A stretch of 64,000 nucleotides of DNA from Thermoanaerobaculia bacterium (GTDB taxonomy: Bacteria > Acidobacteriota > Thermoanaerobaculia > Gp7-AA8). The stretch is taken from the NCBI GenBank assembly GCA_046594105.1, contig JBKJQB010000010.1, positions 14,096 to 78,095 of the forward strand, in the 5' to 3' direction. Below are positions 9,291 to 62,799 of the stretch, piece after piece. A program made the position numbers and the translations under genes. Each line of letters begins with the position of its first letter. Position 1 is the stretch's first letter. The notes under the pieces are model-generated. The model saw nothing but the letters and a program-made list of their open reading frames with translations, searched no databases and had not been told where the DNA came from.

Positions 9291-9996
9291 GCCGGGCCGG
9301 CACGGCCGGCGGCGTTGGTTGCCCAAGGCTCCGCCGTGATCACGCTCCAAGACGTTCTTCCGCGCAGGCCCTAGGAGAGAAGGAAACCAGAAAGCGGAAA
9401 GTGGAAGGCAGAAAGCCCTGAGCAATGGACAGCGCGCACGCTGCGCCTGAGAGAAAGAAACGGGCGCGGAGGCAGAGCGCCGGAGGCGCGATTGACCTTA
9501 GCCCAGGACTTCAGTCCTGGGACTTGAGGGGCTCCCCCAGACGAGTCCCGGAGGGACGATTGACGATGCTTCGTTGCGACATGTTCAATCGTCCCTACGG
9601 GACTTACTTTTTAGGGGCATCAAACCCAGGACTGAAGTCCTGGGCTAAGTTCAATCGTCCCTACGGGACTCGCAAATCCGCATAAAACCTGGCTGTTTCT
9701 GGGAAGCGGCGTGGGGTGGCGGGCGGGAAGCGAAGGATCTGCAATCACGCGAATGCCGCTTGCGACAGTCGGGGCGATGCAGATCCTTCGCCGTCTACGC
9801 GGGCTCTAATGAACTCTGGTCCGAGGCATCAAGAGGATCGAACTCACACCCGCGACGTTGCAGATCCTTCGCCGTCTTCGCGGCTCAGGATGACGGGAGG
9901 GATCTTGCAGCCGGCAGGATTACCTTCTGATTTCTGCTTTCTGCTTTCTGGTTTCTGCTTTTCCGCCTCCCCGCGCACTTGACCTAGAATCCATCG

Positions 9997-16213: not shown

Positions 16214-16351
16214 GGTGGGGAGAGGCGCAGCCGCCTCTCCTCGTCCGCCGCGCAGAAAGTCCCGGCGCATCCGGCTCTCGTTGGATTCCAGTTGCACATT
16301 TCAGGGCTGACGAGTAAAAGTCGTCGGTCCCAGGTCGCCGAAGAAGAGGAG

Positions 16352-45133: not shown

Positions 45134-46141
45134 TCAGAATGCGAACCGGTCTTTTCCCGACCGTTTGGCTTCATAGAGACGCTCGTCGGCTCGCCTCATC
45201 AGGTCGGCCTGCGTCTCATCGTCAGGCCGCAGGTTGGCAATCCCAATGGAGATCGAACATTGAACACTTCCCTCTTCCGTCGCCTGGAGATTGAGACCCC
45301 GAAGTTTCTGCAGAAACCTCTCCGCCACCGCCACGGCACCAGGCAGATCGGTATGTGGCAGAATCAAGGCAAACTCATCCCCCCCGTAGCGGGCAAAAAA
45401 ATCGGGGGGGCGCAGCGTTTCCCGAATGGCGGCGCAAATCTCCGACAGCACGACATCACCCATGGGATGGCCGAACGTATCGTTGATCAACTTGAAATCG
45501 TCGATGTCGATCATCAGCAGCGAGAGCGGGACGCCGTAGACGCGCGCTCGATCGATTTCCTGCGGCAGCTTGGTGCTGAACGCGCGCTTGTTCGAGATCC
45601 CGGTCAGGTGATCCGTATCGGCCAGACTCTGGATCTGCCGTCGCGCTTGGATCTGGGTAATGAGCATCGCCACCTGGGCCGAGAAGATGTCAAGAATCTG
45701 GTGTTCCGTGGTCGAGAACACCTGGGTCGTGCGGAAGGTGATCAGAAGACCAGCAGTACGACCTTCGAGCTCAATGAGCGCGTGAGTAGACTCCAGGAGA
45801 TCGCCCGTCCCCGACGACGGAGCGGAAATCATGGTCTCTGAGCGGATGACCACGTCTGTCGTCTGGAAGGAGATCGGGATGACGTCTTCGAGCGCCCCCC
45901 TGATCTTTGCAATCAGCCCTTCGTTGACCAGAGGGACCGTCACTTCACTCATGGCCAGATGCAGTTCGAGGGTCTGCTCGAGCATGACTGCGACGGCCAG
46001 GTCGAAGGCAACGTATTGATGCAGGACCGGCAGCGCTTCCGAGAAAAGGTCGGCAACGGTTTCCGCCCGGGCCACGCGTCCGCCCAGATCTCGAATCAGC
46101 GCGAGAACATCACCGATCTGCTGATGGACTGATTCGACCAC
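45134..46141 (-). CDS. GAF-GGDEF diguanylate cyclase
   Basis: N-terminal GAF-like domain. C-terminal GGDEF with the intact active site RYGGDEF and an I-site-like RxxD upstream. Confidence 0.8.
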   Translation of the reverse strand: MVESVHQQIGDVLALIRDLGGRVARAETVADLFSEALPVLHQYVAFDLAVAVMLEQTLELHLAMSEVTVPLVNEGLIAKIRGALEDVIPISFQTTDVVIRSETMISAPSSGTGDLLESTHALIELEGRTAGLLITFRTTQVFSTTEHQILDIFSAQVAMLITQIQARRQIQSLADTDHLTGISNKRAFSTKLPQEIDRARVYGVPLSLLMIDIDDFKLINDTFGHPMGDVVLSEICAAIRETLRPPDFFARYGGDEFALILPHTDLPGAVAVAERFLQKLRGLNLQATEEGSVQCSISIGIANLRPDDETQADLMRRADERLYEAKRSGKDRFAF

Positions 46142-46192
46142 GAATGCTCCAATTATATGAGAGGCGACCCCTTATAATTCGTCAGAGAGACC

Positions 46193-48115
46193 ATGGTTGA
46201 GTCTTCAGCGATTCCATTCGAGCACCATGACTTACGAGGCGAACGCCTTCTGGTCCTGGCCCCCCATCCGGACGACGAGGTCATCGGATGCGGCGGAGTC
46301 CTGGCCCGCCATCTGGACCTCGGCTGCCCCGTACGGATCCTGATCGCCACCGACGGCTCGGAGGCCGATCCCGGCGAAGCCGATCGGGATGCCTACCGGG
46401 ACCGGCGGGAACAGGAGACGCGCCAGGGACTCGCTCTTCTGGGTGGAGTCTGCGAAATCACCTTCCTGCGCGCGCCCGATCGCGGTCTGGCCGCAGCAAG
46501 CCCCTCAGTGAGCGCCGCGATCGCGGGACTGTTACGAACCTTCCGTCCCGACCTGATCCTGCTCCCCAGCCCGATCGAGATTCATCCCGACCACTCGGCC
46601 CTCGCCCAATTATTCTGCCAGCTCATTCAGGGCGACCAGACCCTCGCCGCCGAGCTCGCCGTGACTCGAGTCGGTTTCTATGAGATCGGCCAGCCCCTTC
46701 GCCCCAATGTCCTCGTCGACATCACAGACGTCGCCGAACGGAAGTATGCGGCCATCTCTGCTCATGCCTCCCAGACCGCGCTGCACGACTACGTGGGCTT
46801 CACGCGAGGACTGAACGCCTACCGTGCTATGACCCTGACTGCCGATTGCTCTCGGGCCGAGGCGTACTGGGTGACCGACCTGCCGGAGTTGCGCACGCTG
46901 CCCTATTCCGCTCTCCAGCATCGAATGGGCGACGCTCGCGGCACCATCGAGGTCATCGGCGAAACCACGCCGATCAGCGTCATCATCCGGACCAGGAACC
47001 GGCCGGGCCTGTTGCGTGAGGCTCTCCAGTCCGTCCGGTCCAACGGCTATCCGGCAGAGATCGTGGTGGTCAATGACGGCGGTACGCCAGTCACCGCGGA
47101 AGACGTCACCCTCATCGTTCACGAGGAATCGCTGGGGCGCGCGGAAGCGGGAAATCGGGGCGTCCGCGAGGCAACGTCCGAGTTCGTCACTTTTCTGGAT
47201 GATGACGACCTCTACTATCCGGAGCATCTGCAGACCCTTTCCAACGCAGCGGCCGTCATGACCGGCGCGGCGTGCTACACCGACGCCGTCTCCGCATTCG
47301 TAGCCACCGGTACTTCGGGAAGTCTGGAAACGCGCTCCCGGCAACGGTTGTTCGCACGCGACTTTGACCCGGATCTGCTGCTGATCGACAACTACATCCC
47401 GCTACCGACAGTCATCGTGTCCCGGACGAATTTTCTCGACAGCGGCGGCTTCGACCCCGCGTTCGACCTTTTCGAAGACTGGGATTTCCTGATCCGGCTT
47501 TCCCGGCTGGGGCGGTTCACTCGGGTGCCGCGCATCACCTGCGAGATCCGTCACATCGAGGATAGCGGCTCGATCACTCTGACAGCTCCTGAAGGCTCCG
47601 CTCCATTCCGGAAGGCCAAGCTGCAGGTCTGGCAGAAACACGCCGCCCTCATCAACAATAATCTGATGGCCAGCGTGTTCGAAATGCAGAAGCGGGATGC
47701 TGGGCAAGTTTACGCTCAGAGGATCGAGGCAAGCGGGCTGGCCGCGTTTCACGAGCAGAGTGCCCGGCGCGTCGAGCGAGAGAAGCAGTCGCTGATCGAG
47801 CGCCTGCAGGAGCAGAACGAACATCTGAATGAAGCCGTCGTGCGCGGCAGCAACCTCGCTGGCCAGATCCGGGGCATGGAGATCCATCACGACGAGATGA
47901 GGGAAAGCCTGGCCCGATTGGAAAACGAGCGCAACGATCTCCTGGTCCGACTGGCCATCCTGGGTGACGCGCGGGTCGCTTTCGATGAGACCCAGCGGAC
48001 GATCGGGGTCCTCTACGCGGAGATCGCACGCCTTCAGAACCTCCTCGACACCATCTACGGCTCCCGCACGTGGAAGCTGCACAACGTGGTGCAACGAATC
48101 AAGGGCCAGGGTTGA
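46193..48115 (+). CDS. Fusion: PIG-L/LmbE-family N-deacetylase, GT2 glycosyltransferase, C-terminal coiled coil
   Basis: LmbE motif APHPDDEVIGCGG at the N-terminus. GT2 module from ~aa 270 (ISVIIRTRNRPGLLREALQSV...VVVNDGGT...FLDDDD DxD). Coiled-coil tail aa 520-640. Confidence 0.75.
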   Translation: MVESSAIPFEHHDLRGERLLVLAPHPDDEVIGCGGVLARHLDLGCPVRILIATDGSEADPGEADRDAYRDRREQETRQGLALLGGVCEITFLRAPDRGLAAASPSVSAAIAGLLRTFRPDLILLPSPIEIHPDHSALAQLFCQLIQGDQTLAAELAVTRVGFYEIGQPLRPNVLVDITDVAERKYAAISAHASQTALHDYVGFTRGLNAYRAMTLTADCSRAEAYWVTDLPELRTLPYSALQHRMGDARGTIEVIGETTPISVIIRTRNRPGLLREALQSVRSNGYPAEIVVVNDGGTPVTAEDVTLIVHEESLGRAEAGNRGVREATSEFVTFLDDDDLYYPEHLQTLSNAAAVMTGAACYTDAVSAFVATGTSGSLETRSRQRLFARDFDPDLLLIDNYIPLPTVIVSRTNFLDSGGFDPAFDLFEDWDFLIRLSRLGRFTRVPRITCEIRHIEDSGSITLTAPEGSAPFRKAKLQVWQKHAALINNNLMASVFEMQKRDAGQVYAQRIEASGLAAFHEQSARRVEREKQSLIERLQEQNEHLNEAVVRGSNLAGQIRGMEIHHDEMRESLARLENERNDLLVRLAILGDARVAFDETQRTIGVLYAEIARLQNLLDTIYGSRTWKLHNVVQRIKGQG

Positions 48116-49329
48116 GCACCGCCCTCCTCGTCTGTCCCGAGCCCCTCGGGCATCGACAGCCGGCAGGGATCGGCATCCGTTTCCTGGAAATGGCTCGCGT
48201 GCTACGGGAAGACGGCCATTCCATCATCCTGCTGACTCCAGATGGCGCCGGTGTGGCCGGATATCAGACCGCCACCCTCACGCCGCAGTCACTGCGGGAT
48301 TGCTCGGCACGCGCGGACGTCGCAGTGGTCCAGGGACACGTCGCCAATGAGCTCTGGGCGCATGGCTCGGTAATTCCCACGGTGGTCGATCTCTACGATC
48401 CGTTCATCGTCGAGAACCTGCACTACTACACCACTCGGGGGTCTGAGGTTTTTGCTCACGATCACCAGACCTTGATGGCGTCGCTGCGCCGGGGCGACCT
48501 TTTCCTCTGCGCCTCCTCCTCCCAGCGATTCTTCTATCTGGGGATGCTGCTGGCTGCCGGAAGACTGAACCCCATCAGTTTTGAATCGGACCCCACGCTG
48601 CAGTCGCTCCTTCGCCTTGCGCCATTCGGGGTCAGTCCGGCGATCCATCGCACCGGCGCGGAGCCGGACCGTACGGCCGTGCTCTTCGGAGGAATCTACG
48701 ACTGGTACGACCCGATTCTCGCCATCGATGCCGTTGTGCTGGCGCGGCGCGAGATCTCCGACCTGTCCATCACCTTCACCACGCATCCCAATCCATCCAG
48801 CACTCCGCAGAGCCGAACCGCCCAGGCCATCGCGCACGCCGACCGCCATGGGTACGGCCAGTTCGTGCACTTCCGGCCGTGGGTTCCCTACGAGGCCCGG
48901 GCTGAGTTCTACGCCGATTTCTCGGTTGCCCTGCTGACGTTTTCCCCCTCGCTGGAGACGGATCTCTCCATGCGGACACGCGTGTACGACTACCTCTGGG
49001 CAGGGCTTCCAGTGGTCACCAGCTCCGCGCCGGGAACGGATGAAATCATCGAACGATACCGGGCCGGTTCCGTCGTGAGCGGCGGATCCGCGTCAACTTT
49101 TGCCGAGGCTCTGGTGCGGACCATCGCCGATCGCCAATCGACGCAGCCAGGCCTCCGGGAGTTCGTCCGCGATCACCAGTGGGAGAAGACCCTTTCGCCG
49201 CTCGTTGAGTTCGTCCGCTCACCTCGAATGGATCCGACCAAACGGACTTTCGCGACAGCGTCGTCGCTTCCGAAACAGGCGGCCTCCGTCCTCCACCGGC
49301 TTCGCCGGCGCATGGGAGGCCGGTCCTGA
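48112..49329 (+). CDS. GT4-family (GT-B fold) glycosyltransferase
   Basis: TTG start overlaps the upstream stop (TTGA). C-terminal GT4 block YDYLWAGLPVVTSSAPGTDEII (E-x7-E region). Confidence 0.7.
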   Translation: MSTALLVCPEPLGHRQPAGIGIRFLEMARVLREDGHSIILLTPDGAGVAGYQTATLTPQSLRDCSARADVAVVQGHVANELWAHGSVIPTVVDLYDPFIVENLHYYTTRGSEVFAHDHQTLMASLRRGDLFLCASSSQRFFYLGMLLAAGRLNPISFESDPTLQSLLRLAPFGVSPAIHRTGAEPDRTAVLFGGIYDWYDPILAIDAVVLARREISDLSITFTTHPNPSSTPQSRTAQAIAHADRHGYGQFVHFRPWVPYEARAEFYADFSVALLTFSPSLETDLSMRTRVYDYLWAGLPVVTSSAPGTDEIIERYRAGSVVSGGSASTFAEALVRTIADRQSTQPGLREFVRDHQWEKTLSPLVEFVRSPRMDPTKRTFATASSLPKQAASVLHRLRRRMGGRS

Positions 49330-50522
49330 GCGATCCCCTGGTCGACATCATCATCGTCAACTGGAACAGCCGTCAGGACACCCTGGCCTGCCTGGAAGCT
49401 GCGGACGCGCAGCTTCGCGAGGTTCCAGGCTCCGTGATTACGGTGGTCGACAACGGCTCCACGGACGGAAGCATCGGCGCGATTGCAGAGCGCTATCCAC
49501 AGGTACGGCTCCTCCCTCTTGGTGAGAATCGCGGCTTCACCGGTGGGCTGGCCGCGGCGCTGGTCCGATCGCGGGCAACCTCGGTGATTTTTCTGAACAA
49601 CGATGCCATCCCTGAGCGGGGATGGCTTGCCGCCCTGGTCGGCGCGCTGGAGCGGTCGCCGCAGGACGTCATCTCCATCGGTGGAAAGATCGTCGATCTG
49701 TCCGGGCAGCTCATCGATTTCATCGGAGGAGCGCTTACCTTCGACGGGCACGCCTTCCAGTCTGGATTTCGCTACCCGCTGGCCTCACGCACCGGACCTT
49801 CGGCAGGTGATGAGATTCTCTTCGCCTGCGGAGGAAACATGATCTCTCGCCGCGAACCCTTCATGAGGCTGGGGGGATTCGACGACGACTACTTTGCGTA
49901 CCTGGAGGACGTGGACTTTGGCTGGCGCTCCTGGCTGTCCGGCTTCCGCGTTGTATACGAGCCCGCGGCTGTGGTCCGCCACGCATCGAGCGCCACCAGC
50001 CAGCGCCTTGGCGATTTTGAACGGGGTGTGTTGTTCGAGCGGAATGCCCTGCAGACCGCTCTGAAAAATTTCGAGGATCTCCGCGAGGCTGGCGGCTCCC
50101 TCTTCTTCTCGTTCCTTTCCCGTCTGCACCATTACGCAAGCACGCGGAATCCACGAGCCAGGGAACTGACCCGGCCGCCATTCGCGTCCGCGGCGCCGCC
50201 CCGCGCCGGCAGTTGGACCTCGCGAATCCGCAACAGGATCTTCGGCCGCCCCCCGCTGGCCACCATCGACGACCCGCTCACGGTGATGCAGTTCCGCGCG
50301 CTTCACTGGGTGGCGTCCAACACGCAGCGTATTGCGGAAAAGAGGCAGGAGGTTCAGCGCCGGCGTACCCGCAGCGATCGCGAGATCTTCGAGAAATTTC
50401 CCCTCTATCTCGTACCTACCTATCCCGGCGACGAAGGAATGATGGCGGGCGCTCTGTTCCAAATGCTTCTACCAGAGCTGCCCGCGGTCGAAAAAACGCT
50501 GGCCGATATCATGAAGACATGA
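49326..50522 (+). CDS. GT2-family glycosyltransferase
   Basis: Conserved N-terminus DIIIVNWNSRQDTLACLEA...VVDNGSTDGS and DxD (YLEDVD). The first canonical start (GTG 49434) would cut off the conserved beta-1 strand, so start is placed at CTG 49326 overlapping the GT4 stop (cTGA). N-terminus unresolved. Confidence 0.65.
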   Translation: MSDPLVDIIIVNWNSRQDTLACLEAADAQLREVPGSVITVVDNGSTDGSIGAIAERYPQVRLLPLGENRGFTGGLAAALVRSRATSVIFLNNDAIPERGWLAALVGALERSPQDVISIGGKIVDLSGQLIDFIGGALTFDGHAFQSGFRYPLASRTGPSAGDEILFACGGNMISRREPFMRLGGFDDDYFAYLEDVDFGWRSWLSGFRVVYEPAAVVRHASSATSQRLGDFERGVLFERNALQTALKNFEDLREAGGSLFFSFLSRLHHYASTRNPRARELTRPPFASAAPPRAGSWTSRIRNRIFGRPPLATIDDPLTVMQFRALHWVASNTQRIAEKRQEVQRRRTRSDREIFEKFPLYLVPTYPGDEGMMAGALFQMLLPELPAVEKTLADIMKT

Positions 50523-51412
50523 CCGGCAGTTCCTGGCGACAGCGCTTTCTGGTTCGCGGTGTCTTCTGGCGTCAGGGTCTGCGCTGGGGCATTCTCAACA
50601 TCCCGGTCTGGCTCGAACCGGCTGTCATCGCCTGGTGGTCGGCCTTCTTTCTGCTCTGGGGCCCGGGACGCCGAGGGGTCATGAGCAATCTTTCGGCAAT
50701 CAAACCGGGGTCGCTCGCCGTGAGCAACTTCTTCCGCTGCTACCGAGTCTTCTGGAACTACGCATGGACCATCTCCGACAACATCCGCCTCAAGGAACTG
50801 CGCGTGATCCCCGATTGGGAGTTTGAAGGATGGGAGCACTTTCAGGAGATGCAGTCCAGCACCGGCGCCATCCTCCTGACCGCCCACATGGGGAGCTACG
50901 ACCTCGGCGCGCAGCTGTTTTCCGAGATGTCCGCCCGGAATATCGTCATGGTACGCGCCCCGGAAATCGATCCAGAAACTCGGGCCTTCGAGGCGCAGCA
51001 GAGTGCTCGGGGAGTGCGGGTGGAGCTCAACACACAAGCTGGAGCGCTGGCCCTCGATCTCCTGGAAACGGTACGGGCCGGCGGCATCATCGCCATTCAG
51101 GGTGACCGCGTGACACCAGGCATCGGCTTTCTCCAGGCCCAGCTGTTCGGGAAATCTGCACCGATTCCAGCAGGACCGTTCGCTCTGGCCATGTCGGGAC
51201 GTGTCCCCATCTACCCGATTTTCGTCGTCCGCACCGGCCGCAGCCGCTATCGGCTCATCACCCGGCCACCGATCGAGGTTGTGCGCACACGGGATCGTGA
51301 CCAGGACTTTGCGCGCGCTGCCGAAAAATGGACGGTGGAACTTGAGGATCTCATCCGGAGGAGCTGGTTCCAATGGTTCCAGTTCGAACCATTTTCTGTG
51401 GAGCTGCGGTAG
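50519..51412 (+). CDS. Lysophospholipid/lipid-A-type acyltransferase (LPLAT, HtrB/LpxL/PatA-like)
   Basis: ATGA overlap with the upstream gene. N-terminal TM. HX4D acyltransferase motif LTAHMGSYDLG. ~297 aa. Confidence 0.6.
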   Translation: MTGSSWRQRFLVRGVFWRQGLRWGILNIPVWLEPAVIAWWSAFFLLWGPGRRGVMSNLSAIKPGSLAVSNFFRCYRVFWNYAWTISDNIRLKELRVIPDWEFEGWEHFQEMQSSTGAILLTAHMGSYDLGAQLFSEMSARNIVMVRAPEIDPETRAFEAQQSARGVRVELNTQAGALALDLLETVRAGGIIAIQGDRVTPGIGFLQAQLFGKSAPIPAGPFALAMSGRVPIYPIFVVRTGRSRYRLITRPPIEVVRTRDRDQDFARAAEKWTVELEDLIRRSWFQWFQFEPFSVELR

Positions 51413-51981
51413 TGAAAGTGATTCGCGACCAGCCCTACGCGCGATGGTTTCCTTCGCGAAGGCGTTTCGCACTGACGAAGATTCTTGCGTTCGCCTTACT
51501 CAGGACGCTCAGTTCCAACGGAGCGCCGGCACCATCCGATACGGCCGGAGGAAAGCGCATCGTCCTGGGCCTCGATCGTGATCACGACTCGTTCGAGATC
51601 TACTCGGCGGCCAGCCTTCACTTCGTGGTCCTCACCTGTTTCATGGCCTCCTTCATCCCGCTGCCCCCTCCACTCTCGATCCTGCTGGCGGCATTTTTTG
51701 AGCCTCTGCTCGCGCTGCTCCTCTGTTTTGCCGGCGCGCTGGTCATGTCCCGCTGGACCGCCCTCCGAGGTCGCAGCAGGGTGGGCTTCGCGCCTGGGAA
51801 CTCCGTCGTTCTCATGGCGCTGGCAATCGCGGCTTCGTTCTATCTCCTGTGGCGGAACGGATGGGCCGCGCCGGTCGGTGGATTGTTTTTGACGATCGTC
51901 ATCATTAACGCGATCGCTTCGATCGCCGTGCGCTTCCTGCAGCCCACGATCGCCAGATTGGAGGAACGGTGCGTCGCCTGA
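51412..51981 (+). CDS. Hypothetical polytopic membrane protein (~4 TM)
   Basis: GTG start overlapping the upstream TAG by 1 nt. Four hydrophobic helices. No recognisable family. Confidence 0.4.
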   Translation: MKVIRDQPYARWFPSRRRFALTKILAFALLRTLSSNGAPAPSDTAGGKRIVLGLDRDHDSFEIYSAASLHFVVLTCFMASFIPLPPPLSILLAAFFEPLLALLLCFAGALVMSRWTALRGRSRVGFAPGNSVVLMALAIAASFYLLWRNGWAAPVGGLFLTIVIINAIASIAVRFLQPTIARLEERCVA

Positions 51982-52724
51982 TTCTTGGCTTCGCCATCGC
52001 CGCACCAATTCTGCTGGTGGTGGTCTGGCCCTTCTCGAAGATTCTGGCGATCGGCATCCTGGCCGCCTCGCATGCGCTCCTCTTGTACCCGACCCTCCGC
52101 CCGAACGTCCAGTGGCTGGGGCCTGTGATCACGAGCTTCCGGCCGGAAGGAAAACAGGTTTGGCTCACCATCGACGATGGACCTTGCGATGACACAGAAG
52201 GGTTGCTCGATGAGCTGGAGACGCGCGGCGTGAAAGCAACGTTTTTCGTCAAGGGAAGCCTGGCCCGATTGCGACCGGACCTGATCACGATGACTCTGGC
52301 GCGGGGCCACGCCATCGCCAACCACTCCGATACGCATCCCGCCGCCTCGTTCTGGTGCCTTCCGCCCGGCAGGATCGCCCATGAAATCGATCGATGCAGC
52401 GAGGCCATCCGATCCATCGCCGGCCGCGACCCCCACCTGTTTCGCGCACCGGTAGGAATGAAGAATCCCGCCGTGCATCCGCTGCTTGCTCGCAGGAAGA
52501 TGCGACTGGTCGGCTGGAGCATCCGCGGCTTCGACTCCATCGCTCGCGAGGTCGCACCGGTGATCCGGAGAATCGTTCCCAGGGTTCGGCCCGGCTCCAT
52601 CATCGTGATGCACCAGGGTCGATCGATCTCCATCGCCTGCATCACCGGAGTGGTGGACGCGCTGATCTTGCAGGGCTACTCGTTCGTCATCCCGGCAGAG
52701 GATCGCCTGAACACCAGCAGGTAG
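51969..52724 (+). CDS. Polysaccharide deacetylase (CE4/NodB homology domain) with N-terminal TM anchor
   Basis: NodB motifs TIDDGP (MT1), HSDTHP (MT2), RAPVG (MT3). 251 aa. Overlaps the upstream gene by 13 nt. Confidence 0.8.
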   Translation: MRRLILGFAIAAPILLVVVWPFSKILAIGILAASHALLLYPTLRPNVQWLGPVITSFRPEGKQVWLTIDDGPCDDTEGLLDELETRGVKATFFVKGSLARLRPDLITMTLARGHAIANHSDTHPAASFWCLPPGRIAHEIDRCSEAIRSIAGRDPHLFRAPVGMKNPAVHPLLARRKMRLVGWSIRGFDSIAREVAPVIRRIVPRVRPGSIIVMHQGRSISIACITGVVDALILQGYSFVIPAEDRLNTSR

Positions 52725-53344
52725 TTGTTGAAGGGCGTCCTGCCCCAGAGCGGCGTGACCGTTGCCGTGAACTGGTCTTTTGGGAACATCTTCCGGATCG
52801 ACTCCTGCGTCGGGAATTCGAGCCTCTCTGCGCGCAGCCATCGAGTGGCCCGGGCAAAGGCTTCGGCCAGCCAGGTGACCCCGAATCGCCAGGACTCATC
52901 GCGGATCGCGTCGCGGAGAATGGCCACTCCGCCCGGCGCCACAGAATCGGCGACCTTGCGCAGAATGACTGCCTGCTCCTGCTGCGTAAAGTAATGAAGT
53001 ACATCCAGCATGACCACGCTGCCGGAAAAACCAGGAAGCTCCCGGATGTCGCCCTCCCGGAATTGCAGATGCTCACTGGGCCGAACCATCCGTTCGGCCA
53101 CGTCGATTTTGCGGCGGTCGTGGTCGATCCCCTCGATGGCAACAGTCAAACCATGTTCGCGCAGAAAAAAAGCGAGGACGCCGGCGCCGCATCCGAGATC
53201 AAGAATCGGGTTTCGCACGTCTCGGAGATTTTCCAGCACAGCGCGATAAACGGGATCGGTGCGAATCTTGGTACGGACGTACGAGCGCAGAAAGTGTGAC
53301 GGATATCGGGCTGCCACCTTTGCTGCGATGTCGTCGGAGCTCAC
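52676..53344 (-). CDS. Class I SAM-dependent methyltransferase
   Basis: Motif I ILDLGCGAGVLAFFL and the post-I acidic residue (GIDHD). 222 aa. Its 3' end overlaps the convergent deacetylase gene by 49 nt. Confidence 0.75.
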   Translation of the reverse strand: MSSDDIAAKVAARYPSHFLRSYVRTKIRTDPVYRAVLENLRDVRNPILDLGCGAGVLAFFLREHGLTVAIEGIDHDRRKIDVAERMVRPSEHLQFREGDIRELPGFSGSVVMLDVLHYFTQQEQAVILRKVADSVAPGGVAILRDAIRDESWRFGVTWLAEAFARATRWLRAERLEFPTQESIRKMFPKDQFTATVTPLWGRTPFNNYLLVFRRSSAGMTNE

Positions 53345-53775
53345 GGAGAGAGATGCTCGATCAAGTCGATCAGCTCCGGAAGGTTGAAGGGCTTCGGGAG
53401 AATTGCCGAAACACCCATCTGCAGCACTGCTTGCGGGTCGATCCGCAGATGAGCGGAGACCACGATGATCGGAGTTTTGCCGAGTTGGCCCGTTTCCTTG
53501 AGCCGTGCCAGAAAGTCCCAGCCGTTCACGTCCGGCATGGCCAGATCCAGCAGAACCACGTGCGGCTGGTGGAGCGTCAACGCCCGATGCCCCTCCCCCC
53601 CGTCTCCCGCCAGCAGAACCTGAAAACCATGCTGGCGCAGCGCCGCTGCGAGCATTCCTCGGAGGGGAAGATCGTCGTCGATCACAAGAATCCGCTTGCG
53701 ATCGACATCGGCGACCTGCTTCGCCCCTGCGCTGTTCTGAGGCTCCATCTGACTCATCGAAAGGCTCGTTCCCAC
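53341..53775 (-). CDS. Single-domain CheY-like response regulator (receiver only)
   Basis: ILVIDDD...VVLLDLAMPDVNG...PIIVVSA has the phospho-acceptor Asp and acidic pocket. No output domain. Confidence 0.8.
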   Translation of the reverse strand: MGTSLSMSQMEPQNSAGAKQVADVDRKRILVIDDDLPLRGMLAAALRQHGFQVLLAGDGGEGHRALTLHQPHVVLLDLAMPDVNGWDFLARLKETGQLGKTPIIVVSAHLRIDPQAVLQMGVSAILPKPFNLPELIDLIEHLSP

Positions 53776-53809
53776 TGCTGCTGAGACCGTTATGCAGGGA
53801 CAGCGCCAG

Positions 53810-54835
53810 TCAGAAGAGGTCGGAGTCGCCCATCGTGTAATAAAGCCGATCCCGCATCATCGCCACGGCATCCGCCACCTCGAAAGGAACACACATCAGG
53901 GAGAGGTCCTGCGGTTCGGGCCCCGTCATGAAACCCAGATCGTCGAGGACCGCGCTGAACCACTGCGGGTGCCGCGGAAACCAGCCCTCAACCTGATCGA
54001 CAGGATATCCGGGCACCACATGCCGGAGCATGACCGAGACGGCCGCCGGAACCTCAGGATCGAACAGCGCGTCTCCCCACACCAGGCTCCTGCCCAGCAC
54101 TCGAAAGACCGACCAGCCGACCAGTCGACGCCACCGGCGGATGGCGATCACGAAGTAGGTAGTATCCGGACAATCGAAGTAGCGCCATTGAACATAGCGG
54201 GCATCGCGTCGCACCAGGACACCGTAGGCCGGGCGAACGCGATCGAAGAATTCATCGAGCTCGCTGCCGCTCTGTCTCAGAAGCTCCAGGCGGTACCCCT
54301 TCGCTTTGCGCGCCCAGCGTGAAAGCTTCGGCACCGGGTTTCGGGAGAGATCCCGTGCCCGCCAGGCCACCGGCGCGACGCGGTCACTCCTCAGGAAGCG
54401 CAGCGAAAACCGCTGAATGTTCGCGACGTTGAATCCATAGTTGAAGGCAACCTTCTGCTCACAGAATCTCTGGTAGAAGTCGAGGGCAGTTCTGCCAAGA
54501 ACGCTGCTCGGGCCGCGTCCTAAATGCCGCACCGAAGGCCGGGTCATGGTGTCGCCGATCTGATGCACCGACAGGAGCTGGTTGTCCCACTGCAAGGGTA
54601 CGGCGTAACCCGCGTAGTGACCCGCCAGCGTGCCGGCTTCGTCGAACGTGAGGCTGATGTGCCCCGCGCCAAACGGATCCTGTTCGTACTTCCAGCGGAA
54701 GTGATCAGTGCTTCGGGGAGCATGAGGAAAGCAGCGTGCGAACAGATCGAGGATGGCCGGAACATCACGTGCTTCAAAGCCGCGGGTGATGAGGGCTGGA
54801 GGACCGCCCGGCGCATCGACGGATTCAGCGGGCAT
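53810..54835 (-). CDS. FemAB/BioF2-like GNAT-fold acyltransferase (Acetyltransf_6-like)
   Basis: ~340 aa with ...FFDRVRPAYGVLVRRDARYVQWRYFDCP... typical of the FemAB-like GNAT family found in polysaccharide loci. Assignment from fold-level motif memory only. Confidence 0.5.
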   Translation of the reverse strand: MPAESVDAPGGPPALITRGFEARDVPAILDLFARCFPHAPRSTDHFRWKYEQDPFGAGHISLTFDEAGTLAGHYAGYAVPLQWDNQLLSVHQIGDTMTRPSVRHLGRGPSSVLGRTALDFYQRFCEQKVAFNYGFNVANIQRFSLRFLRSDRVAPVAWRARDLSRNPVPKLSRWARKAKGYRLELLRQSGSELDEFFDRVRPAYGVLVRRDARYVQWRYFDCPDTTYFVIAIRRWRRLVGWSVFRVLGRSLVWGDALFDPEVPAAVSVMLRHVVPGYPVDQVEGWFPRHPQWFSAVLDDLGFMTGPEPQDLSLMCVPFEVADAVAMMRDRLYYTMGDSDLF

Positions 54836-56321
54836 GCGTCGGCTCGACGGAGCGGATCGGTCGGAATTCGTGCGGAGATCCAGCTCGCCGTTTTGCCACG
54901 ATCCGGATGGAACCCGACCCAACCAGCAGAGGATCGGGAAGGACCCGCAGCACAGCTCGCACCATTCCTGTCACAGCAGGCCATTGCGACGAAGCGAGGT
55001 GGCGAAGAAATTTGTGATCCCGGTACTCCATCTCCGGGCCAACTGTCAGGACCTCAAAGCCGGAGTGCTCGAGGAGCTCAATCAACGCCGATCGCGAATA
55101 CAGAATGGCGTGGGTGCGAAAACTCTGCGCCATCCATCGTCTGGCCGAGAACAGGAAGAGGAGACTCTCCGTATCAAAGGTACTCAGCAAGAGAACCCCG
55201 CCCGGCTTGAGCAGCTCCTTGATCCGCGACAGCGCATCGTGGGGATCGGGAAGCGTTTCGAACACATGATGAAGAGTGACCGCATCGAACGCCGGCCCGG
55301 TGTTGACGAATTTCGCGAGCGTTGAACAATAGACCTCCAGCCCTCGCGAGCGTGCAGAACGTGCAGCAGCAGCCGCTCGATCGATCCCCACGTACTCGAA
55401 GTCACGGGAGGCCGCATTTCCGAAGCTGCCATCTCGAACTCCGATCTCCAGCACCCTGGCCCTCGGGTTCAAATGACGGCGCAACGTCAATAGCCTCCGT
55501 CCGCTCGTCTTCTCGCGTGCGCTGGTGGTGGAACCGGTCTCCTCTGGATCGCGCTCCACCAGAGCCGAGCGAAGCTGGCGATGCACCGGAATGCCCTCGT
55601 CCTCACTGACGAGCTGGCTGCGATAGCGGCACTTGCAACGGCTGCAGGCACGGATCACATCCCCCGGAATCTGCGCACAGGTCCAGACCTCCGAGGAGAA
55701 ACAGATCGGGCATCTGCGCGGCGCGCGGTAGCTGTTCCTCCGATCAAGGATTCGTATGGTCAGCGCCGAGAGCACCTGCCCCAGGCTTTCCATGACCGAA
55801 AGACGCCGGCCCGCTGCGCCTTCGGCCAGATTCAATCGATCCACTCGAAATCCATACTTGTTCGCAAGGTAGGCGGCTTCGAGCCCGAAGCCATTTTTCA
55901 AACGCGACTCGCCGATGATGAATCGGGCGGCCTCCGCCGAGAACGCCTTCAAGCCCACCGTGGGATCCGGCAGTACGGGAACCAACAGCCACCTTAGAAG
56001 CAAGGGGGCGGATCCGTAGGTCTGGCGCGCGCCGAAGATCACATCCGCTGCTTCTGATTGGATGAGCGCAATGGCGTCGCCCACGGCGTCCGTAGCAAGA
56101 GCCTCGGTTTCATTCAGGATGACGATCACGTTGCCTTTCGCGTCCGGCCAGGCCGCACGGACAGCGGCACCCGGAGATCCACCATCACCGCCACCGACAT
56201 CGATGAGCTGAAAGGTCAGACCGGTGGCCTGGAGATAGCGTTCGAGAGTCTCCCCGGCCTTCATCGATCCCGCTGATCCGGAAACGGACGCGATGATCAG
56301 AGTGACCTCCGGCGACTTCAT
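54825..56321 (-). CDS. Three-module fusion: uncharacterized N-terminal domain (~200 aa), CxxC...CxxC zinc ribbon, class I SAM-dependent methyltransferase
   Basis: Zn ribbon CPICFSSEVWTCAQIPGDVIRACSRCKC. MTase motif I VLEIGVRDGSFG and motif II/III (VTLHHVFETL...GGVLLLSTFD). The N-terminal domain was not recognised. Confidence 0.6.
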   Translation of the reverse strand: MKSPEVTLIIASVSGSAGSMKAGETLERYLQATGLTFQLIDVGGGDGGSPGAAVRAAWPDAKGNVIVILNETEALATDAVGDAIALIQSEAADVIFGARQTYGSAPLLLRWLLVPVLPDPTVGLKAFSAEAARFIIGESRLKNGFGLEAAYLANKYGFRVDRLNLAEGAAGRRLSVMESLGQVLSALTIRILDRRNSYRAPRRCPICFSSEVWTCAQIPGDVIRACSRCKCRYRSQLVSEDEGIPVHRQLRSALVERDPEETGSTTSAREKTSGRRLLTLRRHLNPRARVLEIGVRDGSFGNAASRDFEYVGIDRAAAAARSARSRGLEVYCSTLAKFVNTGPAFDAVTLHHVFETLPDPHDALSRIKELLKPGGVLLLSTFDTESLLFLFSARRWMAQSFRTHAILYSRSALIELLEHSGFEVLTVGPEMEYRDHKFLRHLASSQWPAVTGMVRAVLRVLPDPLLVGSGSIRIVAKRRAGSPHEFRPIRSVEPTHAR

Positions 56322-57346
56322 TGGATCATTCTAGCTTTTGCGAACGCCGCGATCGAAACCCCACTCCTCCGGTCGACGATCCGCGCATACAACACCTCCC
56401 CCTGATAGCAGGCCCAGATGTCTTCTGGAATCGACACGGTTCGGGAGCTCGGGAAGAAGCCTGCCGCCGTATCGAACTCCGGAAATGGCGACGCCTCGAT
56501 CACCACCTCCTGGTCCGGCAGACGGATTCCGTCATCGGGGAAAAGGGCGAATACGGGCGTCGCGGCCAAAGGGCGTTCGAAGCGTTTCAGCAGCATTCCG
56601 GCAGAACCGTTCCACTTCTCGAGGTAGCGCGCCTCGGAGACCGCGTAAGAAGAGGCCGCCTCCTGCGAGCCGGCCGCACTCTGGTTGTAGAGATGACGGA
56701 CTTTGGCATCAGGGACGTAGAGGATGTCTCCCCGGATTCGCCGGAGGAAGTCATGCTCCTCGAAGTACAGCGGATACCGCTCGTCGAACCCACCGGCGGC
56801 ATCGAACACGGTCGCGCGAACAGCCATCACCGCTCCGGACAACGTGGGAACGACCGTGGGGACTGTCCGTGACCAGAAGGCGATCCTGCTCCGAGTTCGG
56901 CGCCGATCTCGGCTCCCGGCCCAACGACGCCATCGGCTCGCGGCAACGCGATCGAGAACTTGCGCTCGAGTATGAAGCTCCGCCGGCGGGAGCATCCACT
57001 GCAGCGCCTCGTCCCAGAAGAGAGCCGGTCCGGCCACCGCGGCGCCGGCGGCGAGCAGCCCATCGATGGATCCGGGTGCAAACCGCACGTCCGGGTTCGT
57101 GATCAGAAGGGTCTCCCCATCGCACCATCTTCGCCCTGCGTTGATCGCTCCGGCATAACCAAGGTTCCGATCAGCAGTCAGAATCTTGCCGGCGCCGCGA
57201 AGCGCCTCGGTCTCTGCCGGATCAACGCTGTTGTCAACGATCACCACTTGTAGCGAAGCGGAGTGCGCGGCCTGCGCGGTGGCGATCGCGTCCAGCGCCA
57301 GTCGCGCCGAGCGATAGTTGACGACGAGAAGGGAGCAGCTCGGCAT
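56318..57346 (-). CDS. GT2-family glycosyltransferase
   Basis: CSLLVVNYRSARLALDAI...VVIVDNSVDP...DxD-like (TNPDV). ~342 aa. 4-nt overlap with the downstream gene and 1-nt overlap with the upstream gene. Confidence 0.75.
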   Translation of the reverse strand: MPSCSLLVVNYRSARLALDAIATAQAAHSASLQVVIVDNSVDPAETEALRGAGKILTADRNLGYAGAINAGRRWCDGETLLITNPDVRFAPGSIDGLLAAGAAVAGPALFWDEALQWMLPPAELHTRAQVLDRVAASRWRRWAGSRDRRRTRSRIAFWSRTVPTVVPTLSGAVMAVRATVFDAAGGFDERYPLYFEEHDFLRRIRGDILYVPDAKVRHLYNQSAAGSQEAASSYAVSEARYLEKWNGSAGMLLKRFERPLAATPVFALFPDDGIRLPDQEVVIEASPFPEFDTAAGFFPSSRTVSIPEDIWACYQGEVLYARIVDRRSGVSIAAFAKARMIQ

Positions 57347-58566
57347 CAACGCTCGACGGCGGCGGTCTCCGCGAGAGCCGGCACCCACCGATGATCGACA
57401 GAAATCAGGCCCACTTCGTAACGTTCTCCCCGGATTGAAAACGCCGGCCGGATGTCGCGCCGATCGAACACGGAAACGGCCGTTTCGTCGCCGGCGAACG
57501 CGATGATCGAATAGTCGCCCCGATTGAGAGGAACATCGTGAAGCTGGACCACCAGCTCGTACTCGTTCCGGCCCGTCAGCGGCGCCACCCCGTCGCCGTG
57601 CGTTCCCACGGCAAAGCACTGAAGGTCATCGGCGGAGCGATGAACCCCGACGATGACGTGAATTGGCTGCCACGCCTGCTCAGAGTCGATTCTGAGTCGC
57701 ACGTGAATGTCCTCGCCCCGCTCGAAGACATCGCGGGGAACACCGCTCCGATCGCAGACCACGATCTCTCGAAACCGGACCGGGGTCAGCGCCCTCTCTG
57801 CCTCCGCCGCCCCCTCGTTGGCCGGACGATCACGATCGCGCTGCAGGAGAAAGGTCTCGTATTCGTGAACGACGTCGAGCGACGGCCCGTAGCGCATCAC
57901 TCGTCCATGATCGAGCCACAGGGCCCGGCGGCAGATCGAGCTGACGTGGTAGAGCGCGTGCGAACAGAACAGAATTGTCTTCCCCTGCTCCTGGAACTCC
58001 CGGATTTTGTCCACACACTTTTTCTGGAAGTGGCCGTCGCCGACGGCGAGAGCTTCGTCGATGATCAGAATCGAGGGGTTGGCGTTGACGGCAACAGAGA
58101 ACGCCAGGCGCATGTACATCCCGGAGGAGTAGGTCTTCACAGGCCGGTCCAGAAAGTCGCCCAGCTCCGAGAACTCCAGGATCGCCGGCAGCCTCTCCCG
58201 CAATTCTGCCGATGAGAGTCCGAGGATGGTGGCGTTGAGCGACGCGTTGTCCCGGCCCGTAAACTCGGGATGAAAACCGGTTCCCAGCTCCAGAATCGAG
58301 GCGATCGTCCCGTCGGTATGCAACGTTCCGCTCGTCTGTCTGGTGACGTTGCAGAGCAACTTGAGCAGCGTGCTCTTGCCCGCTCCGTTCTGCCCGATGA
58401 TCCCGATCGTTTCGCCGCGCTCAACCTCGAATGAGACGTCATCGAGAGCAGGAAAGACCGTGTGCCGGTTTCGTCCGGTGATCGTCTCCAGCAGCCGATC
58501 GATAGGCCGCGGATAAACGTCATATTGCTTGGTCAGCCTGTCGGCGCGAACGGCGATGTTCATCAA
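57346..58566 (-). CDS. Wzt/TagH-like polysaccharide-export ABC transporter ATP-binding protein with C-terminal carbohydrate-binding-type domain
   Basis: Walker A GQNGAGKST, ABC signature YSSGMYMRLAF, Walker B ILIIDEALAVGD, H-loop CSHAL, plus a ~160-aa C-terminal beta-rich extension as in Wzt. No Wzm permease gene is adjacent. Confidence 0.85.
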   Translation of the reverse strand: MMNIAVRADRLTKQYDVYPRPIDRLLETITGRNRHTVFPALDDVSFEVERGETIGIIGQNGAGKSTLLKLLCNVTRQTSGTLHTDGTIASILELGTGFHPEFTGRDNASLNATILGLSSAELRERLPAILEFSELGDFLDRPVKTYSSGMYMRLAFSVAVNANPSILIIDEALAVGDGHFQKKCVDKIREFQEQGKTILFCSHALYHVSSICRRALWLDHGRVMRYGPSLDVVHEYETFLLQRDRDRPANEGAAEAERALTPVRFREIVVCDRSGVPRDVFERGEDIHVRLRIDSEQAWQPIHVIVGVHRSADDLQCFAVGTHGDGVAPLTGRNEYELVVQLHDVPLNRGDYSIIAFAGDETAVSVFDRRDIRPAFSIRGERYEVGLISVDHRWVPALAETAAVER

Positions 58567-58615
58567 TCGTATTGTACGGTTCGCGCTTCCGGTTCATCGC
58601 TCCCGGGGGCCAAAA

Positions 58616-58647
58616 ACAAATGTGGCGGGCCGAAGCCCGCCACATTT
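58616..58647 (-). terminator. Rho-independent terminator downstream of the PKD-repeat protein gene (minus strand)
   Basis: caaatgtggcgggccgaagcccgccacatttg is a 13-bp stem with a cgaa loop. On the minus strand it is followed by gtttttgg. Confidence 0.8.
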
Positions 58648-62767: not shown

Positions 62768-62799
62768 GAAGGGCGGGCCGGTTGCCCGGCCCGCCCTTC
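62768..62799 (-). terminator. Rho-independent terminator downstream of the last (partial) gene (minus strand)
   Basis: gaagggcgggccggttgcccggcccgcccttc is a perfect 12-bp GC stem. On the minus strand it is followed by acttttctg. Confidence 0.75.

Follow-up and report, generated by a model that had tools for sequence, protein, structure and literature searches.

Twelve genes in two convergent sets lie toward the right of the window, the whole 64,000-nucleotide stretch of DNA that was analysed. A Pfam search of the open reading frames places six genes on the plus strand (46193-52724) and six on the minus strand (58563-52676), flanked by a diguanylate cyclase gene on one side and secreted-protein genes on the other.

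45134..46141 (-): GGDEF diguanylate cyclase (Pfam GGDEF, 158 bits), divergent from the locus
46193..48115 (+): g1, LmbE/PIG-L deacetylase (~1-245), GT-A/GT2 domain (~260-482) and 135-residue coiled coil (489-623)
48112..49329 (+): g2, GT-B glycosyltransferase, GT1/GT4 type (Pfam Glyco_trans_1_4, 40 bits)
49326..50522 (+): g3, GT2 glycosyltransferase (Pfam), CTG start
50519..51412 (+): g4, LPLAT/HtrB-family acyltransferase with HX4D (Pfam Lip_A_acyltrans, 40 bits)
51412..51981 (+): g5, small membrane protein, ~4 TM helices; alternative start ATG 51373 possible
51969..52724 (+): g6, membrane-anchored CE4 polysaccharide deacetylase (Pfam Polysacc_deac_1, 90 bits)
52676..53344 (-): g7, SAM-dependent methyltransferase (Pfam)
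53341..53775 (-): g8, stand-alone CheY-like receiver (Pfam Response_reg, 78 bits)
53810..54835 (-): g9, Eis-type tandem GNAT N-acyltransferase, 341 aa (by fold)
54825..56321 (-): g10, weak GT-A-like N-terminal domain, Cys4 ribbon and SAM methyltransferase (Pfam Methyltransf_23, 78 bits)
56318..57346 (-): g11, GT2 glycosyltransferase, 342 aa (Pfam)
57346..58563 (-): g12, Wzt, a Wzt/TagH-family ABC transporter ATPase with a C-terminal Wzt_C carbohydrate-binding domain (Pfam)
58612..58647 (-): intrinsic terminator hairpin, GTGGCGGGC-TTCG-GCCCGCCAC plus T run, between the PKD gene and wzt
58674..62645 (-): secreted PKD-repeat protein, 1323 aa; linkers rich in Pro/Thr, C-terminal tail basic (Pfam PKD, PKD_4)
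62768..62799 (-): 14-bp GC-rich terminator-like hairpin between the next secreted-protein gene and the PKD gene
62821..64000 (-): 3' part of a secreted-protein gene (~500-550 aa) that runs off the window

Genes and junctions

Pfam gives families to g1-g4, g6-g9, g11 and g12, and in part to g10. The preliminary description of twelve genes in two convergent operons thus stands in its genes, domain assignments and overlapping junctions, except that g9, called FemAB-like there, has the Eis-type fold and resembles Eis and glucosamine N-acetyltransferases. Neighbouring genes overlap by TTGA, CTGA, ATGA, 1 or 40 nt, 13 nt, TGATG, ATGA, 11 nt and GTGA. At their 3' ends g6 and g7 share 49 nt, as do their counterparts at 66 of about 105 loci.

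The g1 coiled coil is a continuous 135-residue helix with a hydrophobic period of 3.5 residues, its length varies by steps of 7 residues, and the protein ends in a conserved helix, SRTWKLH. In distant relatives, the LmbE-GT2-coiled-coil unit is fused to a GT2, to a GT2 resembling g3 and, once, to a GT4. The next gene, g2, is present at all 71 loci that reach it and overlaps the g1 stop with its TTG start (TTGA), and has no equivalog match among NCBIfam models. Upstream of 49434, g3 has no ATG, GTG or TTG; its CTG start at 49326 overlaps the g2 stop (CTGA) and follows a Shine-Dalgarno sequence, GGGAGG, at 49313-49318. This NTGA junction is shared by 99 loci, 54 of them with CTG, and 52 of those 54 carry a Shine-Dalgarno sequence.

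Catalytic motifs are invariant among homologues, including the HX4D of g4 (TAHMGxYD) across 24 homologues. By sequence, g4 is related to PatA and LpxL only at a distance. The g5 protein matches no Pfam family and is poorly conserved, with the slot between g4 and g6 retained in relatives. An N-terminal TM helix and the motifs TIDDG and HSDTH mark g6, which scores 86 against the NodB model, whose cut-off is 240. On the minus strand, the receiver g8 keeps 70-84% identity across relatives and ranks among the two best-conserved genes here, the g10 N-terminus matches GT2 at an E value of only 0.11, and the g11 ATG overlaps the wzt stop (TGATG).

Conservation and the exporter partner in relatives

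The locus is a genuine gene cluster whose order is kept across soil Thermoanaerobaculia. More than 100 related contigs share the gene order, with protein identities of about 45-80%, a conservation of the block far beyond chance; the synteny sample comprises no fewer than 80 genomes at species level and no fewer than 50 long contigs from metagenomes. In one genome, g4-g7 are missing as a clean block. This fixed order and content is unlike that of variable O-antigen or EPS loci, bearing out the earlier view that the locus is no conventional O-antigen cluster. Housekeeping genes (accBC, secG, tpiA) form its surroundings. The divergent GGDEF gene was detected at 68 of 80 genome loci, several loci being cut short on that side; at about 10 of the other 12, tpiA directly abuts g1 and the remaining locus is kept. 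The diguanylate cyclase, which usually but not always adjoins the locus, is a possible regulator.

Including its upstream part, the locus spans about 22 kb, exceeding the extent first given. In all 31 related contigs that reach far enough, wzm, an FG-GAP protein gene, the gene for the ~500-550-aa secreted protein and the PKD gene precede wzt, in that order. The wzm gene of these relatives lies about 7.5 kb upstream of wzt, which here would fall beyond base 64000, and its profile matches Aquifex Wzm (6m96_B) over the full length at E 1.8e-30. A Wzt lacking its Wzm partner, as first noted, is therefore true inside the window but probably not beyond it: the orphan is most likely an artefact of the window's right edge. 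By sequence, g12 is a member of the exporter family for polyprenyl-PP-linked polymers: it matches TarH (1e-67) and Aquifex Wzt (1e-66) in the PDB, and scores 82 bits for Pfam ABC_tran, 250 bits for NCBIfam TagH and 95 bits for NodI. Its Wzt_C domain scores 34.9 bits, above Pfam's cut-off of 30.4, and has no sequence match among solved structures.

The PKD gene, initially placed immediately downstream, is on the same strand as wzt and upstream of it, separated by the 58612..58647 hairpin, which is conserved at all 14 related loci examined and is followed, just ahead of the wzt start, by a conserved CCGTACAAT motif. Its position is conserved in relatives, so the suggested link between PKD protein and locus survives as one of syntenic partners. 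The partial secreted protein at 62821..64000 matches no Pfam or NCBIfam family.

A proposed pathway for a capped, exported glycan

With slightly better than even confidence, we read the locus as the enzymatic core of a Wzm/Wzt pathway that assembles, caps and exports a lipid-linked, GlcNAc-containing surface glycan. Gene content, folds, the coiled coil, the pairing of Wzm with Wzt in relatives, synteny and the domain fusions are observed; from them we infer substrate, cap chemistry, step order and acceptor as follows. The lipid-linked glycan would be assembled on the cytoplasmic side of the inner membrane, with the GT2 and GT4 enzymes g2, g3 and g11 extending the chain. The proposed ruler and terminator is g1, whose coiled coil of about 20 nm would space the LmbE-GT2 pair from a membrane-proximal polymerase, so that a terminal HexNAc is added only to chains of set length and then de-N-acetylated. 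The freed amine, hydroxyls or both could be methylated by g7 and g10 or re-N-acylated by g9, and the Wzt_C domain may recognise this cap and license export through Wzm/Wzt. As a separable tailoring block, g4-g7 may attach an acyl group, which might be a lipid anchor like that of the Vi antigen (VexE), and strip further N-acetyl groups. The secreted FG-GAP, family-less and PKD proteins would be tied to the glycan, which could serve as their cell-surface anchor or as a glycan donor. In favour of this pathway, the g1 GT2 domain has its nearest match in an enzyme of PglI type, which acts on an undecaprenyl-PP-linked glycan. The LmbE-GT2 pair could instead act at the primer end of the chain.

Because the locus holds two deacetylases, two acyltransferases and two methyltransferases, the de-N-acetylated, acylated and methylated product proposed earlier is plausible. 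That proposal also leaned on the lack of a polymerase, a flippase and an initiating transferase. No WecA-type initiating transferase was found in the window; the absence of Wzx and Wzy, however, is what a pathway that depends on an ABC transporter should show, and it does not count against a polymer.

The terminators known so far are methyl, phospho-methyl and Kdo groups, and we know of no precedent for a deacetylated or re-acylated amino-sugar cap. By analogy, the LmbE-GT2-coiled-coil unit, the Wzt_C domain and the two methyltransferases match the terminator-ruler-polymerase design known from glycans exported by ABC transporters (E. coli O9a and, in Klebsiella, O7 and O12), and the g1 fusions of distant relatives resemble that layout in Klebsiella O12 WbbB and O7 ORF6, where a coiled-coil protein is likewise joined with several GT modules. 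A coiled-coil protein together with a carbohydrate-binding module on Wzt has been called the hallmark of the terminated-chain strategy (PMC11231755; PMC3482155). Like E. coli O9a and Klebsiella O3 (WbdA, WbdD, Wzm, Wzt-CBM), O12 and O7, the locus has a Wzt bearing a C-terminal carbohydrate-binding domain, paired with Wzm in relatives, and it shares with these systems the SAM methyltransferases, soluble GT-A and GT-B transferases and lack of Wzx/Wzy (PMC11231755, PMC3482155). Its distal modules, however, are an LmbE deacetylase and a GT2 instead of a methyltransferase/kinase or Kdo transferase, no locus protein was found orthologous by sequence to WbdD or WbbB, and it also encodes a receiver besides LPLAT, CE4 and tandem GNAT enzymes. 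It differs further from terminated O-polysaccharide clusters, which vary by serotype, in an order fixed across a bacterial class and in the three secreted-protein genes that part wzm from wzt in its relatives.

The Salmonella Typhi Vi locus (VexE, VexBC ABC transporter) also sets an LPLAT-family acyltransferase beside an ABC-transporter-dependent pathway; there VexE acylates UDP-GlcNAc, starting the glycolipid anchor of the exported glycan (PMC9597891). The likeness of g4 to VexE is at family level, the Vi exporter belongs to the KpsMT type and works with KpsE/D-like partners, and counterparts of TviB-E were not seen here.

Other readings of the locus

An improbable alternative is a small, non-polymeric N-deacetylated, acylated and methylated glycolipid or low-molecular-weight glycoconjugate, made much as PIM, GPI or mycothiol are, by a GT4, then an LmbE deacetylase, then an acyltransferase. 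PIM (PimA/PatA), mycothiol (MshA/MshB/MshD), bacillithiol (BshA/BshB) and GPI (PIG-A/PIG-L) draw on the GT4, LmbE/PIG-L, LPLAT and GNAT superfamilies that meet here in one locus with motifs intact, a PatA-type model is the best NCBIfam match of g4, and sugar-nucleotide synthesis genes and a Wzy-type polymerase are absent. The analogies drawn in the preliminary description nevertheless reduce to superfamily membership, as scores fall far below curated cut-offs (MshA 19 against 462, PatA-type 49 against 209, BshB1 84 against 182, MshB 23 against 224), the g4 profile matches PatA at E 0.027 across 36 residues, and none of the locus proteins passes, by the model cut-offs, as an orthologue of a PIM, mycothiol, bacillithiol or Nod enzyme. 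Unlike those pathways, the locus lacks inositol, cysteine-ligase and malate chemistry and has a polymer exporter with a carbohydrate-binding domain. Its four or more GT modules exceed what a PIM or mycothiol core needs, and the coiled-coil protein, Wzt_C and relatives in which g1 is joined to multi-GT, polymerase-like modules suggest a lipid-linked polymer whose length is controlled.

S-layer glycan (slg) clusters are known in the Gram-positive Geobacillus and Paenibacillus, and the locus might similarly be a dedicated protein-glycosylation system in which an exported lipid-linked glycan is moved onto the co-encoded secreted proteins, at PKD Pro/Thr-rich linkers and at N-x-S/T near the C-terminus of the family-less protein, giving a glycoprotein surface layer. 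The placing of the three genes between wzm and wzt at all 31 loci, the PT-rich linkers, the conserved C-terminal motifs and the terminator hairpins after structural genes, which suggest high expression, fit this idea. We nonetheless doubt it as much as the small-glycolipid reading: neither locus nor window contains an oligosaccharyltransferase, WaaL or PglL-like ligase gene, and the sole GT-C-like gene lies about 38 kb off (7800-9290). Compared with S-layer systems, the three proteins are not known S-layer proteins and show no sign of a lattice. Synteny does not demonstrate covalent attachment, and non-covalent anchoring fits equally, as in Caulobacter, where RsaA is held on an O-antigen and surface-protein genes are likewise linked with a Wzm/Wzt-dependent glycan that serves as anchor or decoration (PMC6978808).

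A secreted exopolysaccharide regulated by c-di-GMP through the GGDEF protein and the receiver, and partly de-N-acetylated after export like PNAG or Pel, would account for the cyclase gene beside most loci and for a membrane-anchored CE4 deacetylase and a receiver in the operon. This is quite unlikely, given predicted export by Wzm/Wzt, the lack of a synthase-type processive GT with a membrane channel, of PilZ or another c-di-GMP receptor and of an outer-membrane porin, and loci that keep the rest intact where the cyclase gene is undetected.

Least credible of all is an ordinary, strain-variable EPS or O-antigen fragment of no special significance: every domain comes from common polysaccharide-cluster families and no protein is orthologous to a specialised pathway enzyme, but the synteny contradicts it, order and content fixed within housekeeping surroundings being the reverse of the hypervariability typical of such clusters, and protein identities of 45-60% exclude a few near-identical strains as the source of the contigs.

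Gene content and conservation of the locus

The glycan locus comprises twelve genes in two convergent operons, within a window of about 62% G+C. ORF listing and Pfam scans bore out all twelve genes of the preliminary description and, in searches of each ORF, nearly all of its domain labels:

46193-48115, plus strand: g1, PIG-L/LmbE deacetylase (Pfam, 96 bits) fused to a GT2 glycosyltransferase (64 bits), with a coiled-coil-like C-terminal region
Plus strand: g2, glycosyltransferase of GT1/GT4 type (Pfam)
Plus strand: g3, GT2 glycosyltransferase (Pfam)
Plus strand: g4, acyltransferase, Lip_A_acyltrans (Pfam)
Plus strand: g5, membrane protein with about four transmembrane helices and no family
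Plus strand: g6, CE4 deacetylase with a transmembrane helix at its N-terminus
Minus strand: g7, methyltransferase (Pfam)
Minus strand: g8, receiver (Pfam)
Minus strand: g9, GNAT acetyltransferase (Pfam)
Minus strand: g10, methyltransferase whose N-terminus is weakly GT2-like (E 0.11)
Minus strand: g11, GT2 glycosyltransferase (Pfam)
Minus strand: g12, Wzt, with ABC_tran and Wzt_C (34.9 bits against a cut-off of 30.4)

The FemAB label once given to g9 had to be withdrawn, as the protein did not show a FemX/FemA-like fold. Even at a relaxed threshold, Pfam yielded no family for g5, for the C-terminal half of g9 or for an uncharacterized secreted protein encoded near the locus. Single-sequence searches of the PDB returned no match for g2, g4 or g9, a PDB profile search for g9 gave nothing useful, and no NCBIfam assignment at equivalog level was obtained for any of the twelve proteins or the secreted proteins.

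The genes had been described as joined by tight start/stop overlaps. The packing is visible in the junctions themselves, which read TTGA, CTGA, ATGA, 1 nt (or 40 nt), 13 nt, TGATG, ATGA, 11 nt and GTGA. At their 3' ends, g6 (CE4) and g7 (methyltransferase) share 49 nt of DNA (52676-52724), which encodes their C-termini on opposite strands; of about 105 related loci, 66 have an overlap of exactly 49 nt and most others one of 35-53 nt. The two convergent operons are not separated by a terminator.

The start of g3 is unusual in that its inspected reading frame holds no ATG, GTG or TTG before 49434, where initiation would cost the protein the first strand of its GT-A fold. Farther upstream the frame stays open as far as 49326, where a CTG preceded by GGGAGG overlaps the g2 stop codon (CTGA); judged from the sequence, this CTG appears to be the start codon. 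Across related loci (L001-L160), the same junction (window 49313-49328) reads NTGA. The start codon is CTG in 54 loci: 52 of them have a GGAG/GAGG Shine-Dalgarno sequence, and 44 have no canonical start ahead of the first beta-strand. It is ATG in 39 loci, only 5 of them with a Shine-Dalgarno sequence, GTG in 4 and TTG in 2. The difference between 52 of 54 CTG loci and 5 of 39 ATG loci indicates that the weak start codon is paired with a strong ribosome-binding site.

Among genomes scanned at one per species, g1 has 282 relatives. The top 80 all come from Thermoanaerobaculia or Acidobacteriota MAGs and are full length at about 50-60% identity; the closest named relative, from a Thermoanaerobaculia MAG (L001), is 91% identical. 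Comparison of all window proteins by tblastn with the loci of these best 80 relatives showed gene content, order and orientation to be shared: tpiA and a GGDEF gene pointing left, g1, g2, g3, g4, (g5) and g6 pointing right, and g7, g8, g9, g10, g11 and g12 pointing left. The order holds wherever the contig is long enough (g2 in 71 of 71 loci, g6 in 55 of 56, g10 in 52 of 52), and protein identity among relatives runs from about 45% (g7) up to 70-84% (g8, g12). In the window, the locus adjoins the housekeeping genes accB, accC, secG and tpiA. Since variable O-antigen or EPS loci lack such fixity, the reading of the locus as an ordinary cluster fragment is rejected.

One related locus, L071 (9339-11265), lacks g4, g5, g6 and g7 as a clean block, leaving 146 nt from the g3 stop to the g8 stop, and keeps every other gene. 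This clean absence from an otherwise intact locus suggests a separable, optional tailoring module made up of the genes for the acyltransferase, the membrane protein, the CE4 and the methyltransferase. At the other end, the GGDEF gene (45134-46193 region) and g1 are transcribed divergently from start codons only about 51 nt apart. Of 80 related genome loci, 12 gave no GGDEF match, and about ten of these 12 have tpiA directly next to g1; the receiver is kept in GGDEF-less loci where the contig extends to g8. The idea of GGDEF and receiver as an obligatory pair was dropped on account of the roughly ten loci with no GGDEF between tpiA and g1.

The exporter genes and their arm

The 64-kb window encodes no ABC-2 permease, and the preliminary description had taken Wzt for an orphan with no Wzm partner. 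That view probably gives way once the relatives are read farther out. A metagenome scan with g12 recovered 80 loci with 10 kb on either side, in which two conserved genes precede wzt on its own strand: the PKD protein gene and the next gene (window 62821 to the edge), encoding the uncharacterized secreted protein. Farther upstream lie genes for an FG-GAP protein and a membrane protein of about 250 aa with a weak ABC2_membrane match. The order wzm, FG-GAP, uncharacterized secreted protein, PKD, wzt was found in all 31 loci long enough to reach it; only two loci have FG-GAP without wzm, and a contig end cuts both.

Homology searches identify the two subunits. A 13-sequence profile of the membrane protein gave a full-length match to Wzm, the O-antigen permease of Aquifex aeolicus (6m96_B), with an E-value of 1.8e-30, and matched TarG with 2.8e-17. 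The Wzt ATPase domain found TarH (1.1e-67) and Aquifex Wzt (8.5e-66) in a phmmer search of the PDB, and its score of 250 bits against TagH in NCBIfam places it in the Wzt/TagH family. The Wzt_C carbohydrate-binding module spans residues 263-389, scores above the Pfam cut-off and is a putative ligand-binding domain; a profile search of the C-terminal domain against the PDB gave no sequence match.

Because 31 of 31 relatives carry wzm at this place, the wzm of the window's own genome is predicted to lie on the minus strand, about 2.5-3.5 kb past base 64000. Beyond wzm, relatives have a divergent TPR protein gene, so wzm is the first gene of its arm. Among wzm homologues (L081-L160, ~1000-1400), an in-frame stop is followed almost at once by the conserved N-terminus K-N-[VL]-H-L-L-R-E-L, and no ATG is close by; like that of g3, the wzm start codon may be non-canonical.

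The arm is also punctuated by hairpins. A perfect terminator hairpin, GTGGCGGGC-TTCG-GCCCGCCAC followed by a T run, stands 3' of the PKD gene (window 58567-58647), and all 14 loci examined (L081-L098, ~9906-10000) keep this intrinsic hairpin with nearly every base unchanged. After it comes a conserved -10-like motif, CCGTACAAT, only about 10 nt ahead of the wzt start, which suggests that wzt is read from a separate, nearly leaderless transcript. With a second strong hairpin 3' of the uncharacterized secreted protein gene, the arm probably contains more than one transcription unit, the structural protein genes being set off from the enzyme genes.

A proposed route of glycan assembly

By its profile scores, the locus falls outside the PIM, mycothiol, bacillithiol, GPI and Nod pathways. 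The PIM analogy of the preliminary description fails at PRK07920, which scored 49 bits against a cut-off of 209; g2 did not match PimA, and the g4 profile matched PatA only marginally (E 0.027 over 36 residues). The HX4D motif of g4 is invariant, and its kinship to PatA or LpxL is remote. The suggested parallel to mycothiol and bacillithiol synthesis fared no better (MshA 19 against 462, MshB 23 against 224, BshB1 84 against 182), and no Cys ligase gene for that route is present. The GPI parallel (PIG-A/PIG-L) likewise lapsed. None of the twelve proteins reaches an NCBIfam equivalog cut-off. A Nod-factor lipo-chitooligosaccharide system is rejected: NodB scored 86 against 240 and NodI 95 bits against 521, TagH (250 bits) exceeds NodI for Wzt, and NodA and NodC are both absent.

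In g1, the LmbE metal site (HPDDE and HPDH), the GT-A motifs (DDDD and EDW) and a C-terminal S-x-T-W-K-L-H motif are kept in 44 homologues, among which residues ~500-610 are poorly conserved. The AlphaFold2 model (pLDDT 84.6) contains LmbE, GT-A, one continuous helix (489-623) and, last, a short helix. The periodicity of hydrophobic positions in the continuous helix is strongest at exactly 3.5 residues, and its lengths in 87 homologues fall into two series with 7-residue steps (131/138/145 and 134/141/148/155); from both patterns, the helix behaves as a coiled coil of conserved length.

An exhaustive search for distant relatives of g1 gave 1015 clusters (50% identity) at E <=1e-30, many with the LmbE-GT2 pair inside proteins of 900-1700 aa. 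Four of six examined (P0267, P0275, P0290 and P0345) are built as PIG-L, GT2, coiled-coil-like spacer, GT2 and a g3-like GT2 (24-27% identity), and in at least two of them the spacer ends in a g1-type S-x-x-W-K-[LI] motif. P0345 carries an additional GT4, P0312 has a methyltransferase-like insert within its spacer, and P0257 repeats the LmbE-GT2 unit. Such fusions tie g1 functionally to glycosyltransferases of the g3, g11 and g2 kind.

This architecture recalls how ABC-transporter-dependent glycans are described to be made in E. coli O9a and in Klebsiella O3, O4, O7 and O12. There, a coiled-coil molecular ruler carries the terminating enzyme at its distal end and polymerase glycosyltransferase modules at its membrane-proximal end, and a carbohydrate-binding module on Wzt lets only capped chains through; the coiled-coil protein is described as the characteristic marker (PMC11231755, PMC3482155). 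The present system likewise has Wzt with a predicted Wzm (read in relatives), Wzt_C, methyltransferases, soluble glycosyltransferases, a coiled-coil protein that bears catalytic modules at one of its ends, and relatives with ruler and glycosyltransferases in one polypeptide. On its structural model, g1 supplies the marker coiled coil, and a ruler role is proposed for it.

With each structural element of the terminated strategy present or predicted, a model of extension, capping and export can be put forward. The glycosyltransferases g2, g3 and g11 would extend a lipid-linked chain, and the LmbE-GT2 tip of g1 would add a terminal HexNAc and then de-N-acetylate it. The amine or hydroxyls would subsequently be methylated (g7, g10) or re-acylated (g9), making LmbE-GT2, the two methyltransferases and the GNAT the candidate cap enzymes, and Wzt would read the modified chain end. 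The g4 LPLAT may build or extend a lipid anchor, following the example of VexE and the ABC-exported Vi antigen (PMC9597891), and CE4 may deacetylate further residues. Neither a WecA-type initiator for a polyprenyl-phosphate primer nor a ligase to the final acceptor was found within the window. We infer every chemical step, and give the terminated Wzm/Wzt model as a whole slightly better than an even chance.

The locus is made of familiar parts. Unlike known terminated systems, it has a deacetylase and a GT2 as distal modules, adds LPLAT, CE4, tandem GNAT and receiver genes, splits wzm from wzt by three client-like genes, and keeps its gene order fixed across a lineage. If the model is true, the coiled-coil ruler paradigm would gain a terminator module of a new kind, a deacetylase with a GT2, and the locus would offer an unusual ABC exporter whose subunit genes flank those of its probable client surface proteins.

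Secreted proteins and the cell envelope

The FG-GAP, uncharacterized and PKD proteins all carry signal peptides. In the uncharacterized protein (~500-550 aa; window 62821-64000; L085:4182-5792), this peptide, MKKLLVLAMMATLLMAGSAFA, hardly varies, and near the C-terminus lies an N-x-S/T-P motif (PNCSP in the window); no relative was found in Pfam, NCBIfam or the PDB. Linkers rich in Pro and Thr occur in the PKD protein, and most of its homologues (L083-L160) finish in a short basic tail that fits P-[RK]-x-R-x-x-[RK]-H-COOH, usually with R-H as the last two residues; the window protein reads PRRRAGRH there (58674-58720). A subgroup of longer proteins (1735-1769 aa) ends in DPEYV-x-A-T-P-L instead. 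We know of no sorting signal that the basic tail matches.

That these three genes keep their place between wzm and wzt speaks for a functional link of their products with the glycan. The glycan would either hold the proteins at the surface, in the way that Caulobacter RsaA is anchored on O-antigen (PMC6978808), or be attached to them; neither a ligase nor an oligosaccharyltransferase gene is there to discriminate between the two. A wider reading, which we regard as unlikely, sees a class-wide envelope module in which a single locus of about 22 kb would specify an S-layer-like coat. A fixed-length glycan would serve as anchor or donor for the three surface proteins. Its cap, a previously undescribed amino sugar, de-N-acetylated and then methylated or re-acylated, would be made by the LmbE-GT2 terminator at the tip of the coiled-coil ruler and read by the carbohydrate-binding domain of Wzt.

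Thermoanaerobaculia are abundant soil Acidobacteriota, almost none of them cultured, and to our knowledge nothing has been established about their cell surface. Literature searches returned no paper naming Thermoanaerobaculia together with glycosyltransferases, nothing relevant on Acidobacteria with Wzm/Wzt, and none on the locus. A glycan locus of lineage-wide fixed order likely specifies a core envelope component, which, if true, bears on soil aggregation, desiccation tolerance, phage receptors and cultivation. Even with the mechanism wrong, the locus is a well-defined unit that heterologous expression can test, and thus a testable lead on the surface of an abundant uncultured soil lineage.

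Two side observations concern other genes of the window. About 38 kb from the locus, 7800-9290 (plus strand) encodes a GT-C-type membrane glycosyltransferase (PMT_2/STT3-like), the window's only candidate periplasmic lipid-linked sugar transferase. Another large surface-type repeat protein, of 1133 aa with eight DUF11 repeats (576 bits), is encoded at 16292-19693 (plus strand).
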